A stretch of DNA of 64,000 nt from positions 48,422,001 through 48,486,000 of the forward strand of contig OZ024742.1 of the NCBI GenBank assembly GCA_964016885.1, in the 5' to 3' direction. Both the position numbers and the translations under genes were made by a program. Source of the DNA: Eledone cirrhosa. Its lineage: Eukaryota. This document shows positions 505 through 54,700 of this stretch, piece by piece (within the stretch, counting starts at the first letter, position 1; every line of letters starts with the position of its first letter). A model generated the notes under the pieces. It made no database searches and was not told the DNA's origin. It was given only the letters and a program-made list of their open reading frames with translations.

Positions 505-508
<4 letters not shown>

Positions 509-577
509 GTGGAACACTGGAAGGTAATATCTGTAGTGGTAGAGTTAGGTAGAAGTGGTTACACAGCAGTTAGTTCA

Positions 578-627
578 CCATACCGAGAACAATTGTTTCA
601 CCTTAGCGGATCCTCAGCACGGAATGG
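578..627 (-). ncRNA. Minimal type I hammerhead ribozyme in PLE 3' repeat
   Basis: Reverse complement: CCAUUCCGUG CUGAGGA U CC GCUAA GG U GAAAC AAUU GUU CUCGGUAUGG; core boxes, stem I and palindromic stem III (AACAAUUGUU). Confidence 0.78.
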
Positions 628-784
628 GCATGGTTATAGGAACAGGAGGGACAACTGTACGAACGCGCATGCTCAGAAACCCAGTCACATCACACAGGCA
701 ATACTAGAACGCGTGCGAGAAGTGTAAGGGAGATAACTGCGAAAGTCCGAAAAGTTTTTAGTTGAAAAATAAAATTACAATGAA

Positions 785-2550
785 TCAGTCCAGGGACTTG
801 TAGTTGTGCATTAGGTGTTTGGCTACGTGTGGACAACGTGTGAAACATTCATTCCTCGTGTTTAGGCAATCACTATTGCGTAATCTCTTTACAATAGTTA
901 TTCGTTCGTCAATACATAGTCCACACGACGGATTCCCCCCCCCCCCCCTTGCGTATGGCTTGGACTTAGTGATTGCTTTCCATTGAATGGAGTAGTCTAT
1001 ACATGAGTCCTTGAGGGACCATACGTGGCTCGTGAGTTTCGTGGATGAACGTCTGTCCGGGTACCTGAAGGTAGACTGGTGGTTCAGGAAACGTTCCTTA
1101 AATCGGCCCTCCGCCATGCCCACATAGGATTTGACTTCCTGTTGTTCGTTTGGTCTGTTGGAAGTGACCACAGCTTCTTAAATTTCAGCTGGTGTATTGC
1201 ATTGCAGTTGAAGGGGGCAATCGTCAGGCTTACGGAAAGAGCACCCTGGAGGGGTATTGGTCCTAGGACTGCTGGTGATGTGGGCCTTCATGTTATTAGC
1301 GCAGGAGTATCCTAGTTTTACTTTGTGTCGGTTAAAGATGGAGCGGTATTTAGGACCTATGGGAAAGTGTCTATTTAAGAGGGCTAGACATTTTATTCTT
1401 ACATTGGTTTTAACGTTGAGTGAGAAGGGAGGAGAGAACCAGATAGGTTGTCTATTGTTGCGCTTACTTTTCCTAATGGTGTTGTCGCTAGTTTGAGAGT
1501 AAATGATAGTATGTGAGAAGCCACTGTTAGCCAACGCCGTGTTATAGTAGGGTGCTGCCCTGTCAAAGACAGCATTATTATGTTTTCTAAAAACAGTGGG
1601 AGGGTAGCATTAGTCCTTGTGAATGCAATTGAGTTTCTCGTTTAGCTTATGGAAGGGTCTGTGGGTGTGTGTGCGAAGGTCTAAATTAATGTCTAAGAAA
1701 TCTACACTAGATAGGTTGGTGGCTACTGTTATCCTAAGCCCTAACTCTTTGAAAGTAGAAGCTAAGTCTTTTTTAAACCGGTCGAGGTTGTTACCCCTTT
1801 TATGGCTCGATAAAGTCAATCCATCGTCGCCGTATATTCCCGTGTGGAAGTCCGGGAATGTAACACGTAATATGTCTGAGATAAATAGGCCAACGAAGTC
1901 ACATACGTCAGCACTGTCAAACGATCCCATGGGGACGTCGAATAGGTCTGAAGTTGTAGACTTCTTTGACCAGGCTACTTCGTTGTTGAGGAGGAGGGTT
2001 TTACGGCAGTGAGCGATGATTTCCCTGTCTAAACCATCGACGGTGGTATAAGTGGTAGCGAAGTTCAACGCTTTGTTTAATAGGGTCTCTGAGATCGACG
2101 GGTAAAAATCGACAATGTCAAACTGTATGAACTTCGCCTTTGGGGATTTTAAAGAATTAAACGACTTAATTACGGAGTCGCTGTTCTCCCTCTGGGGCAG
2201 GTTGGACTTTGTCCTAATAGTCTTAACTATTTTTCTAAGTATGGCCTTACTGATTAGTCCCATATCTGTGCGTGCCGGGTTTATTAGTCTACACGTGGGG
2301 TTAGAAATAAAGTCTACCTTGTGATCTTTCAGGGTGAGGAACGCCTCCCGCTTAGCTAGAGATTGTAGCTTCTTATCTACCTTAAGGTCGGCGGCAAGTT
2401 CCTTGGCTTCTGTATTAATGTCCTGGTAGGCTATAGGGTTAGCTTTCTTATATTTAGAAGTAATAGGGTTATGGGCCAGGTGGCGGAAGCTGGTGTTGTC
2501 GACTTCGTAAATATTATTAGTTTTGTCAGAAAGAACGAAGACCTAAATTT
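785..2550 (-). pseudogene. Disrupted PLE reverse transcriptase/GIY-YIG endonuclease ORF
   Basis: ORF pieces 1610-2263 (extendable upstream to ~2550), 1178-1534 and 785-1171, separated by stops/indels. Confidence 0.88.
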
Positions 2551-3106
2551 CCATGTGGGCATGGCGGAGAGCCGATTTAAGGAACGTTTACTGAACCACC
2601 AGTCTACCTTCAGGTACCCGGAGAGACGTTCATCCACGAAACTCGCGAGCCATGTATGGTCCCTCAAGGACTCAAGTATAGCCTATATTCAATGGAAAGC
2701 CATCACTATGTCCAAGCCATATGCAAGGGGAAATCCGACGTGTGGCTTATGTATTGACGAACGAATTATTCTAAAGAGATTACGCAATAGTGATTGCCTA
2801 AACACGAGAACTGAATTTTTCACACGTTGTCCACACGTCGCCAAACACCTATTGCATAACTACAATGCTCCGGATTCTTTGTAATTTTATTTTTCAACTA
2901 AAAACTTTTCGGCTTTCGCAGTTATCTCCCTTACACCTCTTGCACGCATTCTAGTATTGCCTGTGTGATATGACCGGGTTTCTGCGGATGCGCGTTCGTA
3001 CGGTTGTCCTTCCTGTTCCTATAACCATGCCCATTCCGAGCTGAGGATCCGCTAAGGTGAAACAATTGTTCTCGGTATGGTGAACTAACTGTTGTGTAAC
3101 CACTTC

Positions 3107-3108
<2 letters not shown>
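2551..3108 (+). mobile_element. Inverted copy of the PLE 3' end (GIY-YIG + pseudo-LTR)
   Basis: Reverse-complement match to ~551-1130; ORF 2471-2884 repeats VGMAESRFKERL..CGLCIDER..RCPH. Confidence 0.9.
3031..3080 (+). ncRNA. Minimal type I hammerhead ribozyme
   Basis: CCAUUCCGAG CUGAGGA UCCGCUAAGGU GAAAC AAUU GUU CUCGGUAUGG; stem I pairs at 9 of 10 positions. Confidence 0.82.
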
Positions 3109-3149
<41 letters not shown>

Positions 3150-3210: not shown

Positions 3211-4096
3211 AGCAGTAATCGGTTTCAGTTAGTACAATTTGTGTGACTTAGAAATGTCAGTCTTCAATCATCATTGCGAAAATTGGGAATTCACGTGATT
3301 TAGTAATACAAATATCATAAATAAACATATCTATATATGTGTCTGCCTGTCTCTCTACCTATCTATTTATCCGCCTTCTTATCTTATATTTGGATATAGT
3401 TGTTCCAGGTTTATAGCGTTTATGAGTTTGTTCTGGTACTGATGGATTTGCACCTGTTATTGTCGAAGAGTTGTAGAGAACCATGTCATAATATTTCCGA
3501 ACCTTTCTATGGATCTAACATTACATCGATCTAAATGAAGAACACGTGAAATCTATGCACTACAACAAACCAGAAAAAAAACAAAATAATAATAATGAAG
3601 TAAATACACCATTTAGTTAAGAAATAAGCGAAATGAATCCTTGCCGAAAAATATAAACATGATTTAAGAAAATACGATAACAAAAGAATCCGCAAATGGT
3701 ATAAACCTCAGTGTCATTATGTAGATAAAATAAAATTCGATATACGCATGAATGCAAAACATAAGATTAAATAAAATCTACACAAACCTATATCTATAAA
3801 AAGTTTCAAACACGTAATGAAAATAAATGAAGGAAATCACGACTTACCTATTCTAAGTATGCAATCGTTCTTCAAGACGAACGCAGAGAAAATGATAAAA
3901 TAAAGACAAAGGCACTTAAATTCCAAGCTATACGCTTTTCAATGTAAACTGAAACTCAGCCACAACTTTTCCAGAACCTCTCTGAAATAAGATTCTACTA
4001 CCATAAAGTCCTATGCGGTGTTTCTGAATATTATATAGACATATACATGTGTATATATTCTTTTGTTTGAGCTGTTTGGCTTGCTTCGTTTTTTTT

Positions 4097-4133
4097 CTGA
4101 AGATTTCTAATAAGAATGAAACGCGTAGGTTAC
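4097..4133 (+). ncRNA. Hammerhead core of first array unit, lacking the 5' strand of stem I
   Basis: CUGAAGA..GAAACGCGUA GGUUAC preceded by a T run instead of GTAATC. Confidence 0.6.
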
Positions 4134-4400
4134 TTCCCTTGCTTTTATCGAGAATCTAATTGTAATACGTGACGTATTCTATTCTATAGCGATTAGGTCT
4201 TCAAAATGTTTATTATAAACATACAGAATATTTTCGAATATTCTATGTCTATCTTCACATATATATCGCTATTTCAGAGCATTTAATCCAATTTCTAATT
4301 TCTGCCGGACCGGCAACCGCTCTTTCAAACCAGTTCCTGTACACAGCTAAGTATTCTATAAGTCTCTAGCTGTGTCATTCTCGATAAAAGCACTGGATAT

Positions 4401-4443
4401 GTAATCCTGAAGATTTCTAATAAGAATGAAACGCGTAGGTTAC
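4401..4443 (+). ncRNA. Minimal type I hammerhead ribozyme (unit 2)
   Basis: GUAAUC CUGAAGA U UUCU AAUA AGAA U GAAA CGCG UA GGUUAC; 6-bp stem I with one G-U; GUA triplet, predicted cut after 4437. Confidence 0.85.
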
Positions 4444-4710
4444 TTCCCTTGCTTTTATCGAGAATCTAATTGTAATACGTGACGTATTCTATTCTATAGC
4501 GATTAGGTCTTCAAAATGTTTATTATAAACATACAGAATATTTTCGAATATTCTATGTCTATCTTCACATATATATCGCTATTTCAGAGCATTTAATCCA
4601 ATTTCTAATTTCTGCCGGACCGGCAACCGCTCTTTCAAACCAGTTCCTGTACACAGCTAAGTATTCTATAAGTCTCTAGCTGTGTCATTCTCGATAAAAG
4701 CACTGGATAT

Positions 4711-4753
4711 GTAATCCTGAAGATTTCTAATAAGAATGAAACGCGTAGGTTAC
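4711..4753 (+). ncRNA. Minimal type I hammerhead ribozyme (unit 3)
   Basis: Same sequence as 4401-4443; predicted cut after 4747. Confidence 0.85.
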
Positions 4754-4904
4754 TTCCCTTGCTTTTATCGAGAATCTAATTGTAATACGTGACGTATTCT
4801 ATTCTATAGCGATTAGGTCTTCAAAATGTTTATTATAAACATACAGAATATTTTCGAATATTCTATGTCTATCTTCACATATATATCGCTATTTCAGAGC
4901 ATTT

Positions 4905-4937
<33 letters not shown>

Positions 4938-8825: not shown

Positions 8826-8869
8826 ACCGTCCTGAGGAAGACCAGTCAAGTCTGAAATGCATAGACAGT
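8826..8869 (+). ncRNA. Minimal type I hammerhead ribozyme
   Basis: ACCGUC CUGAGGA AGAC CAGUCAA GUCU GAAA UGCA UA GACAGU; 4-bp stem II, palindromic stem III, AUA triplet, stem I 5/6. Confidence 0.78.
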
Positions 8870-19848: not shown

Positions 19849-22800
19849 CTACAGGCGCATGATCAGAGTAGGCCCACTCACACGGGCGCTTCTCGCCACA
19901 TTCACCCACCTCTCAGCAAATGTACTGGGGGGCAGCACTTCTCTCTCCACCCCCACCTTCCTTTCCAAATGAAACTTGAAAAAGTTGATGAGGGATTGGC
20001 CGAAGAGAAAAGTGTTTCTCTTCAGTCCTTTCAACCTCGTCCACCATACAACCTCTTTCGCTACTGCCACCAGACAGAGGAAAATTGCCTGCCCTTCTTG
20101 GCCAAAAGAAGGCGGCGGGTAGATCTTTACTATGGAGTCAGCCGATAGCCGTATCCGTTCTACACGCGACAACAGCTGTTCGACATAACTCCACAAGTCA
20201 GTAATGCACGGACACTAGACGAGTGCGTGCAGAACGGTTTCGTCGGTCTGCGCGAATCTCGGGGAGGTCCGTCTGACAGCACTTCCGTGCCTGTACAGTT
20301 TATCTCGAACCGTCAGTGACCCCGGTAGCACTGCCAACCGAGGGATTTTCGTCCCCGGCTCGAAAGTCCTCCGGAACAGACTGGTTACTTCGACTTCGTC
20401 GACGCCCGGGTCTCCGAGTGCGTCGTCGCACTTTCCCCCACTAATTCTCTATATAACTCTAGAGTGGAAATTCAACTGACCGCATTGCCCGCTTGGTAGA
20501 GGAAAATGAGTGTCTGGAAACATTCCAGATGTCAGTCACCTAGCCTCGGTCTTTCCTTGATCCAGGACTGCAGATCAGACAGAGATGAGCTGCGGAAAGG
20601 CCCGTCTGACAAACGGCGACCACACATGTTCACCGTTTAGGCAGAATATCTGGAGATGCTGCAGCCTCAGGACGTGTCTGTGCATCATTAGCCACAGTAT
20701 GCCCAGCCCTCCACGTAGAGGAACATGACCCCTCCACAAGAATTTGAAGAGGAGCCGTTCCAAGTTGACGACGGTCAGGCGGTAGTAGGTGACGGGCGCG
20801 ATGGACGTGTTCGCCACCTCCGCCCCACCTTTCAGTGATAGCTTCCTCGCAGCCCATTTCTGCGTGAAACTGGCTACCCTGTCCATCACCTCGTCCCAAT
20901 TACTTTCCAACTGGAGGTCTGGCCCGAAACAAACACCGAGCAACTTTACCCGTCCGCCAGTCCAGCGCCCAACGACACTGTTGGACGGCATGGACTTGCT
21001 TCTCCAGGTGCCGAGTTGCAAGCCCACCGACGTTTCCGTGTTAAGATTTGCTCCCGTCAACCTTTCATATTCCTCCAATAAGTTGCCGACCACCTCGATT
21101 TCTGAGGTGTCCGACACCATCATGGTGATGTCGTCCGCACAAGCCGACACACCCTTTCCGCTTCCCGGTTCGAGCGGGATGCCCTGCAACAGCTCAGGCT
21201 TCCGCAGTAATGGCTCGAGAGTGAATACGTACGGAAGGGAGGAGAGAGGGCACTTTTGACGGACCGATCGTGAGATCTGAAACGGTTCCGAGAGGGGGCC
21301 ATTAAGTTTGAACACCGAACAGGTGGCGCTGTGCATTGCAGCGATCCAGCTTCTGAAGCCAGGGCCGAAGCTAGCCGCCTTTAGGACAACCACCAGGTAC
21401 TGATGGTCGACCCTATCGAATGCTTTACACTTATCTAAATTGATCAGAGACCCACCGAAGCCAGGTTTACACCCTACACTCACTATGAGGTGGAGGTTGT
21501 CGTGTGTGGACTTGTTTGGGATTCCGCAAGTTTGCGCTTCCCCCAACCAAATCCTCGACGACAAGCGCCAACTCTTCCCTAACACATTGGCCAAGATCTT
21601 AAACTCTGTGTTGAGCAGAGTCACGGGCCTGAAATTGTCTAATGTGTCCCTCTTATTCTCTTCTTTCCTTATCAGCGTCACTAGGCTCCGGCTCACAGAA
21701 CTGGAGGCGCTCTACTGCCAGTTGCAGTAGAGCGCTTCGAGGAGAACGAAGAAGATGTCTGGCATATTTACATAAAGCTCGTAGGGCAGACCATCAAAAC
21801 CCGGTAATCGGCCTTTCGCAGCGCCCAGCCTCGGCCGTCGAGAGGTGCGGCAAGCCATCGAGGTAGGCACTGAAGTTAGCCACCGTCTCTGACCCGCCAC
21901 TACCCCTGAAAAACAAATCAAAATGTTTTGCGAAAGGCTTCACACATCCGCTTGGAATCGTTCAGCTGGTGTACGTCTCGGTTCGTCAAAGACCGAATCG
22001 TGGTTGTATTACCACACTGCGCCTCTGCCACGCGGGCCCATCGAACAGCTTTGGTTCCCTCGTATCTCAGAGCACACGCCTTAGCTCTGACAAGACAACC
22101 TTTGTGTTTCGCATTGAAGAAATGATCAAATAGCATTCTCGCCGCTAGCACGTCAGTTGCAATGCCACTACGTATAACTTATCTACCAGCTCCACCTCCT
22201 TTCTATTTTTCTCTAATGCTACTTCTTTGCTAAACCCTATCTACATTACTCAAATCTAGCTTTTGAGAGGCCTCCACCATCTATTGTTGACGACTCCCCA
22301 TGTCAACTTTTTCTTAACTAAATTATTGACCCGATCCCTGTAAGATGTACGTGCCGGAAACGGCATGTTCAGCCTCCAGTAACCAGGTCCTAACCTAGCG
22401 TCTTATCTAGATCGACCATACAGATCACAAACTTGTGACCTGAATAGTCGAACGTATGTAATTGTGGACACCCTATACTATCCTTATCCCCTAATCTAAT
22501 TAGAAACCTATCTAAGTACGGTCTAGATGTCCCTAAATGATTTGTCCAGGTCTACACTGGCGCATTAGGTAAATTTAATCGGTATCTGTCAGCCAGTTCC
22601 AACTGGCTGATCAGGTACTTGATGCTTTTGCCCCCCCCCCCATCTATCGGATACTCCCACACAGTTCCTGCGTTCATCTAAAATGCCGTTCCAGTTCCCC
22701 GCTAACAGTAAAGGGCGAGACGCACCCATAAAGGCTTCCAGGCGTTTAAAGATATCCCCCCCCCCCCGGTAGGGGCGTAGACGGCCACCAGTCTAAAGGC

Positions 22801-51782: not shown

Positions 51783-54700
51783 GTTGCATTATCTTGCTTT
51801 ATGTTCATACGAGTTATCACCAAGTCGCAACCAGTGACCTCAGGAGACAACAAGGTCCGCCATGTTCAAGAAAGAACATACATACACACACATGCATCTT
51901 AAGGTGTTTAGACTTGTGATGTACTTATATTGACAGAATCTTCCTTAGTATATGGGCAGTTCCCATTAGTACTATCTTTTGTATTTCTCCTATACGCGGG
52001 TTTCCTGAGATTTGCGATAACTAATCATTAGACCCTTTAGGTATCATTCCTAGAGCGCCTACAACCACTGGAATTGTTTTAGTTCTCAATTTCCACATAC
52101 TTCCAATTTCTATCTCCAGCTCCTTATACTTGCTCAATTTTTCAAATGTTTTTATAGATACATTCTTGTCTATTGAAACGGACATATCAATTAGCAGGCA
52201 TACTCTCTTTTTAAAGTCCTTCAGTATCATATCAGGCCTATTTGCATATATTTTTCGTGCTGTTTGGATGCTAAAGTTCCACAAGATTGAGATGTGATCT
52301 TTTTCAAGTATAAGAGGTGGTTGATGCTCCCACCAATTCTTTTGATGGGGCAGGTCAAAATGCTTACACATTATCCAATGTATGTATTGTGCAGCTCTGT
52401 CATGCCTGTTTAGGTTGGAGCTATAGGACTGCAGATTGAAATGATATGATCAATGGTTTCCTGGTTGTTTTTTTACATACCCGGCATAATGGGTTGCATC
52501 CATTTTTTATTATGTTGGCTTGGTAATTTTTTGTTGGCAGACACTGATCTTGTGCTGATATAATCAGTCCTTCAGTCTCCGATTTCAGTCCAGAGGATGC
52601 CAACCACTGATGGGTTAAAGTTTTGTCAACATCAGGATTGTTAGCTCTTTCTGGGTATTTTCCATACAGAGGCTTTTCTTGCCATTTCTTAGCCAGTTTC
52701 TGTAGCAGTTCTTTCTTTGCAGTTACTTTTACCTGCTTTGCTTTTTCTGTGTTTTTCATTTCAGCAGTAAATGGAACTTCTGAAATGTGTAGTCAATTAC
52801 TGTATCTTTGTGCATCTTTTGTAATGGAGTATGATCTTTCGATGCTTTCGTTTTTCAAAACGAGTTTGATCATCCGATCATGTGATTCCCTTAGATATGT
52901 AGATAATCCAATTGTAGCAGTTTTCAACGCAATGTCTAACTGGATTAACCCACGTCCTTCTTCTTTCCTAGGGAGAGATATTATATCTGTATCTGCCTTA
53001 GGTGTGATGCATTGTTAACATTTTCTAATTTTTGTGTCGAGCCTACGGATCTCTGTGCTTGTCCAGTTGATGACATTGTAACTGTAGGTTACTACTGGTA
53101 TGGCAAGCGTGTTTATGGCATCTATCCTATTCCATGCATTCAATTCCCTTCTTAACATTGCTCTCACTCTGCGGTAACATTACTTCCTTATCCTTTCCCT
53201 CATTGTCCAGTGCTTTTAATGTCATCACTGAACTGCTTCACAGTGGATAATAGCCCTTGCAATTATTCATCATTTTTTGCAAATAGTTTCAGGTCATCCA
53301 TATAGAACAAGTGATTAATGGTTTTGTCATAGACTTTATATCCATGTTTTGTTTCATTGAGCATTTTACTTAATGGTATAAGTGCGATGCAGAATAAAAG
53401 CGGTGATAAAGTGTCACTCTGAAAAATTCCACAATTAATATTAACTTCTCCAGCTTCCAGTGATTTTTTTACAATATTCAAAAGGAGTGTCGTTTTCCAT
53501 GTCTTCATACAGAATGACAGTAACCTCCTGACAACGGGAGATATTTTGAAAATCTCTAAACATTTTTTAATGCAACTGTGTGGCAAACTATCGAATGCTT
53601 TTTTATAATCTATCCAAGCAATTGATAGATTTTTTTGTCTATTATGACAATCTTCCAGTATCATTTTGTTAACCAAAAGATGTTCTTTACAGCTATATGA
53701 GCCTTGTTTACACCCTTTCTGCTCATTGGGAAATATATGATTTGTTATCATGTGGTCATATGTATATTTAGTTAGGACTGATGTTAAAATATTATACATT
53801 GTGGTCAAGTAAGGTATCGGTCTGTAATTTTGGGGATTGTTTGTCTCATCATTCTTCGTTAGTAAGAATGTAATGCCATTAATTAGCCATGATGATATCT
53901 TTTCTGGCTCCTTAACTATTACATTGTAAAGTTGGGCTAATAGCTCATGGGACTCTGTGAAGGCATTTATCCAAAAATTTGGTATTTTGTCTTTACCTGG
54001 GGATTTCCATTTGCTGGTTTTTCTAAGAGCCAAACGCAACTGTTCAACTGTTATATTTTCCCATGTTTGTTCCTCAAGGTGTGCTGTACCTTTCATTTGT
54101 CTGTCTATCCAAGAGGCATGTATATTATGAACTTTTTCTTCGGCCCAGATCTTTTCCCAGAATTCTTCCACATCCAGTTTTTGTTGACTTGCCAATTTTT
54201 CTGTACAATTTCTTTGGTTGTTTTTGAACATATTATTGTCCTTATAGAATCTAGATCGTTTTTCAAAGCGCCTTATACGAGCAGCTTTGACCGACACTTT
54301 TTGCTTGATTATTTCTATCAGCATGTCTATGCCACTTGTTGATTTTATAATGTATTTTCTTTTCAATTTTCTAAGTTTAGTTTGTTTAACATGTTGACCT
54401 ACTTTGTAGTTTGTTAAAATTTCTATGTCAGATCGGAGAAGGTTTATTTGGCGATTGATGTTTTCTTACCAAGTAGATTTCTTGTGGGAATTCCTTTGTT
54501 TTTTTCATTTTCACTCCACATAAGTGGGTGGTGACTTTAGTCGATGCATAATATAGATGATTTAGATCAGTAATGTTTAGTTTGTTTATGATGATAATGT
54601 TTTTGAGAATTATGTTAGTCTTGTGTATTATCGTTTGGTTCTGTTTGGAGTTCTGGATCTTAGGAAGAGTGCCTCGTTCCCCCATGTCAGATTCTTTCAT

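Follow-up and report, generated by a model that had tools for sequence, protein, structure and literature searches.

Some 4 kb into the window, by which we mean the whole 64,000-nucleotide stretch of Eledone cirrhosa DNA analysed here, lies a retrozyme insertion: 2.63 identical units of 310 nt, end to end, at positions 4097–4912 of the + strand. The insertion consists of a single arm, truncated at its 5' end; its 3' end, which we term the long (or tailed) end site, abuts the (AT)n target at 4913–4937. Counted from cleavage site to cleavage site, unit 1 occupies 4128–4437, with a truncated hammerhead upstream, and unit 2, identical to it, occupies 4438–4747 with a complete hammerhead on each side. 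Because the array starts at 4097, the first hammerhead, of which 4097–4137 survives, lacks the 5' strand of stem I. The monomer between two complete ribozymes, which we predict would be excised, is therefore 4438–4747. The 5' flank of the array (4072–4101) resembles, by eye, a stretch in another locus, L035, that continues with the array's first four bases, and from this likeness the start at the hammerhead core may reflect microhomology at the junction.

The minimal hammerhead is of type I (4395–4447, + strand, repeated 310 nt downstream). It comprises a 6-bp stem I (4401–4406/4438–4443), the core CUGAAGA (4407–4413), a stem II of 4 bp over a basal U-U (4415–4418/4423–4426), GAAA at 4428–4431, and a palindromic six-base helix III at 4431–4436, with the predicted cut after GUA, at 4437. 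We called the motif with the core consensus; Rfam gave no match at gathering score and, below it, a weak match to Hammerhead_HH9 (17.1 bits, E 1.9, 4702–4767). The palindrome of helix III can form a 6-bp intermolecular helix, at a computed −7.5 kcal/mol, as has been described in axolotl motifs that cleave as dimers (PMC7229834). No hammerhead motif occurs on the minus strand of the array.

The unit is poor in G and C (106/310 bases), and the array contains no reading frame of at least 200 aa and none for a reverse transcriptase with a GIY-YIG endonuclease. The motif TATTCTAT appears three times within the unit (4174–4182, 4238–4246 and 4351–4359), on the 3' side of a hairpin or in a loop. Across the family, insertions have variable 5' ends and 3' ends inside the unit, and no LTR was seen. 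The unit's 16-bp inverted repeat is internal and the insertions end elsewhere, unlike a MITE or a DNA palindrome with terminal repeats. Tandem, non-coding, dispersed, hammerhead-bearing and predicted to fold stably, the element at 4097–4912 counts, as far as sequence can define one, as a non-LTR retrozyme.

It is a young, high-copy member of that class, which is already known (PMC7229834). A hammerhead-core pattern matched 18,798 times genome-wide, against 22 for the control (the first 100 matches listed were all of the young family), and the CUGAUGA-core variant alone matched 12,415 times; a DNA search with the unit gave 297 matches in the 40 candidates that were scored out of 390. Older families, with units of 315–322 nt, are ~75% identical over a central module (4186–4362) that holds both of the sites at which insertions end, and they have different hammerhead stems and homologous end sites. 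Copies of such families at L127:3880-4140, L118, L119 and L249-L278 have a longer helix III and the same end sites, and candidates number 2,413. Inside some long arrays of the young family (L049, L037, L175 and L060) there are higher-order duplications, of 5, 10, 7 and 4 units, so expansion at the DNA level also acts.

Arrays of the family end in (AT)n at unit position ~130 or ~165. In the window's numbering the short end site lies at 4257, or anywhere from there to 4266, and the long one at 4292; the 35 nt between them, 4257–4292, form a tail that joins (AT)n. Genome-wide we counted 1,731 long and 1,655 short junctions with (AT)n; controls gave 0. When ends within 20 kb of each other were paired over the first 172 Mb of C1, which has 96 long and 100 short ends, all 60 divergent (head-to-head) pairs proved to consist of one long end and one short end, and 76 of the 196 ends had no listed partner. 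In 60 of 64 insertions the two arms agree in haplotype (shuffling gives 7.3 on average and 15 at most); the four exceptions are one alignment artefact, two single-unit ties and one real switch within an arm. Where the arms meet—54 junctions were scored—36 overlap by 0–3 nt, 7 by more, and 11 contain inserted bases. One two-armed insertion, L042, is flanked by three-base AT-rich repeats, not (AT)n.

This end geometry matches the insertion signature of Penelope-like elements: inverted, one-tailed and targeted to (TA)n. Those elements, according to the available parts of the papers that describe them, leave inverted, 5'-truncated copies with a one-sided tail of 30–40 bp (PMC8557442); the tail has been tied to two internal start sites of reverse transcription, and extension on two strands has been shown for the anole enzyme (PMC11167929). 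Among the titles, abstract openings and parts of key papers that we covered (subscription papers and supplements lay outside), we found no report of tails, inverted arms or this end geometry for retrozyme arrays.

How does the unit fold? Every helix and motif named in the preliminary description was found at the position given. The 16-bp inverted repeat, which clamps the ends of the monomer, is perfect (5' arm 4140–4155, 3' arm 4377–4392); ~4e-5 such repeats are expected per 310 nt. The arms are predicted to pair with each other in the monomer, and in the precursor 4377–4392 would pair instead with 4450–4465, lengthening stem I. The AAUACG, AGAAUAUU and ACACAGCUA helices have mean pair probabilities of 0.85–0.98, the ACACAGCUA stem (4341–4375) being at 0.98. 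The central module comprises a stem, 4186–4193/4265–4272, hairpins at 4206–4222 and 4225–4244, and an arm, 4276–4280/4319–4323, with a hairpin at 4303–4315; its function is likely to be that of a recognition element for the reverse transcriptase.

Comparison with shuffled sequences had been proposed as a check on this fold, and the + strand is indeed more stable than they are: z −3.68 (0/100 shuffles as good) in one comparison, and z −4.6 both linear and circular (0/150) in another. The stability is not, however, specific to the + strand, as had been claimed, for the minus strand folds better still (−82.1 versus −71.6 kcal/mol; z −5.2 to −5.4). When the 16-bp arms are kept from pairing, each strand comes down to about its shuffle mean (−52.5 and −58.5), and the folding excess therefore comes from the 16-bp repeat, on both strands. 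The preliminary description had also made much of a stem, 4154–4163/4189–4198, that encloses a hairpin at 4164–4178 and pairs fully only with three G-U wobbles. The wobbles are there as described, but the stem's mean probability is 0.33 and it overlaps the 16-bp repeat at 4154–4155. It competes, moreover, with the Watson–Crick stem of the central module (probability 0.59), and the energies of the two folds are equal, −71.6 versus −71.4. With the minus strand the more stable and the G-U stem tied with its alternative, energy alone shows neither strand specificity nor the G-U stem.

Covariation can be read across the older families. In an alignment of 11 units (3 young and 8 older), 8 of the 16 clamp pairs have changed on both sides and 88.6% of cells remain paired, the compensatory changes that had been named as a check. 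None of 500 shuffles reaches either value and slid controls give 1–3 two-sided pairs; the rows of the alignment are related to one another, so that the shuffle result should not be taken as a probability. By RNAalifold, 22 of 66 pairs have changed on both sides, among them pairs of stems I and II and of the two central hairpins. The G-U stem, offered earlier as the evidence of selection, is not conserved: 68.6% of its cells are paired and 1 of its 10 pairs is two-sided, a level that 402 of 500 shuffles reach, although its covariation score is reached by only 9 of 500. In one subfamily a 2-nt insertion puts a bulge in the stem, and two changes fixed in arrays disrupt it; an A>G change at 4195 would be tolerable within it. 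The ACACAGCUA and AAUACG helices are out of register in the older families, where a hairpin is still predicted near the position of the latter.

Variation within the young family can be read in the same way. The 156 loci that we typed comprise 99 taken in order of position along C1 (19, and then the first 80 from a list of 120 regions), 39 chosen by likeness to the window, which is included, and 18 from a set of 30 loci taken one per array. Among them are one overlapping pair and one pair of segmental duplicates, which means that a few units are counted twice. Fixation throughout arrays was seen for 46 substitutions; another 256, counted from the base in the window, are private, confined to single units. 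At paired sites, 13 of the 19 fixed changes keep the pair on the + strand and 2 keep the mirror (minus-strand) pair, and a fourteenth is one half of a two-sided change in the clamp (L213); the private changes keep the + strand pair in 29 of 125 cases and the mirror pair in 40. Changes that break pairs make up 6 of the 46 inherited substitutions and 96 of the 256 private ones (p 0.001). Of the real breaks, four of five lie at or beside helix ends or in a weak helix; the fifth is in stem II, at 4418, and 10 arrays have it fixed. The catalytic core has no inherited change (0/46; ~1.4 expected). Because inherited changes keep + strand pairs and are depleted in breaks, the + strand RNA is the molecule that is folded and copied. 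Selection on the + strand fold, the inference once hung on the G-U wobbles, thus stands on clamp covariation and inherited variants, while the wobble argument itself falls.

These observations bear on two other accounts of the array. One is that it is a satellite-like DNA repeat: a monomer or palindrome that inserted and was amplified as DNA, its fold a by-product of the inverted repeat. The folding excess of both strands, with its source in the 16-bp repeat, and the higher-order duplications of some arrays are what that account expects. The ~1,700 dispersed insertions with fixed, asymmetric ends are not, and neither are the intact catalytic core and the contrast between inherited and private changes at paired sites. 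Satellite-like amplification as the main route is largely refuted, and we give the account as a whole very little credence. The other is that the element is a viroid-like replicon that also replicates through RNA alone, with occasional retro-copying. In its favour, the minus strand has a stable fold, and RNA–RNA replication was left open in the available parts of PMC7229834. The minus strand's stability, however, follows from Watson–Crick stems, the minus strand of the array has no hammerhead motif, and the mutation bias is strand-asymmetric, all of which makes this account highly improbable too. The term 'viroid-like', applied to the unit at the outset, holds for the predicted shape of the RNA; it does not hold for the element, a genomic retrozyme with Penelope-type insertion ends and hammerheads of one polarity. 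Retrotransposition of a folded + strand RNA is the reading that we pursue.

Was the template a circle? The typed loci contain 47 haplotypes, each uniform within its arrays; that of the window is a minority of the family. Rare variants, too, are fixed array-wide, a 2-nt deletion in 22 of 22 units being one example. At the 344 cleavage-site junctions read there are four strings, uniform per array with one exception. The extra base that 311-nt units have beside the cleavage site was considered as a ligation scar and rejected, since it sits two bases inside the unit, where it is able to join stem I by pairing. Uniform arrays of many haplotypes, together with clean junctions, favour a circle over a linear multimer, and sister circles from one source array fit as well.

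The same element and enzyme might nevertheless have used an uncleaved linear multimer transcript, or cleaved linear monomers with template jumps, and no circle at all. For the anole element in vitro, hammerhead cleavage was unneeded and unprocessed RNA was the main substrate (PMC11167929, in the parts available), and homogeneous parent arrays would also give matching arms. Against this, 47 array-uniform haplotypes would require repeated bottlenecks of a single monomer, each followed by re-multimerisation; the cleavage-site junctions are without array-internal indels; and in three arrays the variants present in both arms are not mirrored by position from the 3' end. We regard a linear template as improbable, and a 310-nt circle as the likely one.

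In three arrays (L194, L069 and L046) the arms change type part-way along: a variant is present in the junction-proximal units of both arms and absent from the units made first. One unchanging template leaves such a switch unexplained; it could be due to editing or template switching during copying, or to gene conversion. Two of the three switches are at the recurrent A>G sites 4403 and 4147.

Contigs from sequencing runs X1–X3 (one sample, kind of run unrecorded) contain variants known from the genome and junctions with (AT)n. Runs X4–X6, which bear the labels of other organisms, each contain one 340-nt contig (the unit plus 30). We rejected these as evidence of circles, since a tandem DNA repeat or trace contamination equally gives one. 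The X4–X6 sequences differ from the window at 6–7 positions, and these differences are ones found in haplotypes of the present genome; they may have come from contamination or from the diet.

The inherited changes are distinguished by their spectrum as well as by their pairing. A>G accounts for 16 of the 46 fixed changes and for 12 of the 256 private ones (p 6e-8); A>G sites include 4147, 4195, 4377 and 4403. The figures are 6/20 and 7/115 (p 0.004) when the count is restricted to loci fetched once the idea had been noted; at unpaired sites, A>G makes up 6 of 12 fixed transitions and 7 of 56 private ones (p 0.008); and among rare variants only, it makes up 13 of 32. It is the rarest transition among the private changes, which lean the opposite way (T>C 36 versus A>G 12, p 0.005), the bias that a reverse transcriptase would leave through G-U misincorporation. 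We think it reasonably probable that the A>G excess stems from A-to-I editing of the folded RNA template, copied back into the genome. Among the titles, abstract openings and parts of key papers covered, subscription papers and supplements again being outside, we found no report of A>G bias or editing marks in retrozymes; a search linking retrozymes with editing by ADAR yielded a single paper, a cancer review.

For this one step, selection—A-U to G-U is nearly neutral—or polymerase errors might stand in for ADAR. Ten of the 16 A>G changes are at positions that face U in a predicted stem. Turning C-G into U-G is the more costly in energy, and the rarity of C>T in such stems could be due to that. 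The 5' neighbour pattern is weak (0/16 A>G changes follow G, versus 14/93 adenosines), and 2 of the 16 sites mark whole subfamilies, so that their direction is uncertain. Selection and polymerase error fit less well with an excess that extends to unpaired sites and to rare variants, and with the scarcity of A>G among private changes, and we judge such an origin somewhat unlikely. Five arrays, each of a different background, have A>G at 4147; changes of other kinds recur across backgrounds as well, and recurrence alone is therefore no proof of editing, the origin that we prefer.

Penelope-like elements are present in the same genome as the retrozyme, and indeed in its neighbourhood. One kb from the array, at 506–3110, is an element of Hydra type, made of two inverted arms and bounded on either side by (AT)n. 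It carries hammerhead motifs at 617 (−) and 3041 (+), its left arm alone has a tail, of ~44 nt, and its layout is that of the retrozyme insertions. A search for its family scored 128 matches from 35,061 candidates. The family has RWR, DKT and CxCx5C motifs and a C-terminal endonuclease region; Pfam gave no convincing family for the Hydra proteins. Comparison of the unit with this family (20 loci) and with the rest of the window revealed no shared sequence and no pseudo-LTR homologue, the search returning only adjacent older-family retrozyme copies and weak, short matches. Since the two have no sequence in common and the Hydra family's tail is longer (~44–61 nt versus the retrozyme's 35), the element at 506–3110 is probably not the retrozyme's partner. 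Neither this comparison nor a translated search of 198 retrozyme loci, which turned up Hydra fragments beside many arrays, found the family of the partner enzyme. Apparent chimeras at L035, L060 and L063 were rejected as evidence of partnership: they involve three different families, two visibly decayed, and read as chance neighbours.

Further Hydra-like families, with ~30–47% protein identity to that of the window, occur at L191:1-2070 (−), L035, L039, L060, L132 and L160, and these are candidates for the partner. One of these families has 690 open codons, and L132 also holds a different reverse transcriptase–endonuclease element. Elsewhere in the window, two isolated hammerhead-like motifs, at 8832 and 16370, lie beside AT-rich runs and are probably the ends of other Penelope-type families, and there are LINE-type reverse transcriptase fragments (PF00078) at 20575–21711 (−) and 53263–54465 (−).

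Putting these strands together, we consider it probable that the + strand RNA, predicted to cut itself, and likely a 310-nt circle, is likely reverse-transcribed into (AT)n by a Penelope-like enzyme, and that its A>G changes probably come from editing. The 16-bp repeat would serve twice, extending stem I of the hammerhead and clamping the ends of the monomer together. Cleavage would probably need two tandem hammerheads, paired through the palindromic helix III, and the cleaved monomer would then ligate to form the circle. The enzyme would prime two cDNAs, one on each side of a break, using two fixed sites that lie 35 nt from each other; each cDNA would make several laps of the same template or of a sister one; and their joining through an overlap of 0–3 nt would leave head-to-head arrays in which only one arm has a tail. 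Tandem repeats would be made at insertion, some long arrays having grown later by DNA duplication. A bolder version, offered tentatively and as something short of an even bet, has a dimer of a Penelope-type enzyme priming both (AT)n break ends at two fixed sites on one small circle made by the ribozyme and rolling on both sides, with ADAR editing the folded circle beforehand, so that editing enters the germ-line genome and is a leading source of the element's heritable variation.

Two matters left open in the available parts of PMC7229834, PMC8557442, PMC11167929 and a 2026 preprint (Li, Clavereau and Pollet 2026, 10.64898/2026.07.22.740005) are how retrozymes enter new sites and how the inverted, one-tailed insertions of Penelope elements originate. 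The young family offers a 310-nt template, two start sites resolved to the base, a module supported by covariation, and ~1,700 natural products, and with these both questions become testable in vitro. And if the A>G excess is editing, then it provides a measurable case of RNA editing becoming inherited.

The closest known systems are the metazoan non-LTR retrozymes (Cervera and de la Pena 2020, PMC7229834; compared here through the parts available), which share with the present family 150–450-bp tandem units of low GC, a type I hammerhead and a self-paired predicted fold. Our hammerhead resembles axolotl HHR_Amex1 in its palindromic tetraloop over a 1-bp helix III, and HHR_Amex2 in the U-U at the base of helix II; both of these ribozymes cleave better as dimers (PMC7229834). 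Those retrozymes were shown to be expressed as circles, whereas here the circle is predicted from sequence. The same paper proposes mobilisation by Penelope elements and rolling-circle copying; two-armed insertions, fixed end sites and A>G bias are not seen in the parts of it available. The preprint (10.64898/2026.07.22.740005), again in the parts available, proposes the Penelope link from co-occurrence and pseudo-LTR homology, attributes tandems to local amplification, and reports that one of nine predicted retrozyme dimers cleaved in vitro. Our family differs in that the insertion ends themselves carry the Penelope signature, the tandems were apparently made at insertion, and no pseudo-LTR homologue was found (one family, 20 loci plus the window).

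Endonuclease-bearing Penelope-like elements of the Hydra clade (PMC8557442, PMC11167929, likewise in part) share with the retrozyme (TA)n targets, an inverted 5'-truncated arm, a one-sided 30–40-bp tail, two internal start sites and a hammerhead. Unlike them, the retrozyme unit has no gene for a reverse transcriptase or an endonuclease, and each arm is a multimer of a non-coding unit of 310 nt. Hammerhead viroids and viroid-like circular RNAs resemble it in size, in their predicted closed fold and in the hammerhead. The retrozyme differs from hammerhead viroids, in turn, in having copies in genomic DNA, in carrying its hammerhead motif on one polarity only, and in spreading by retrotransposition.
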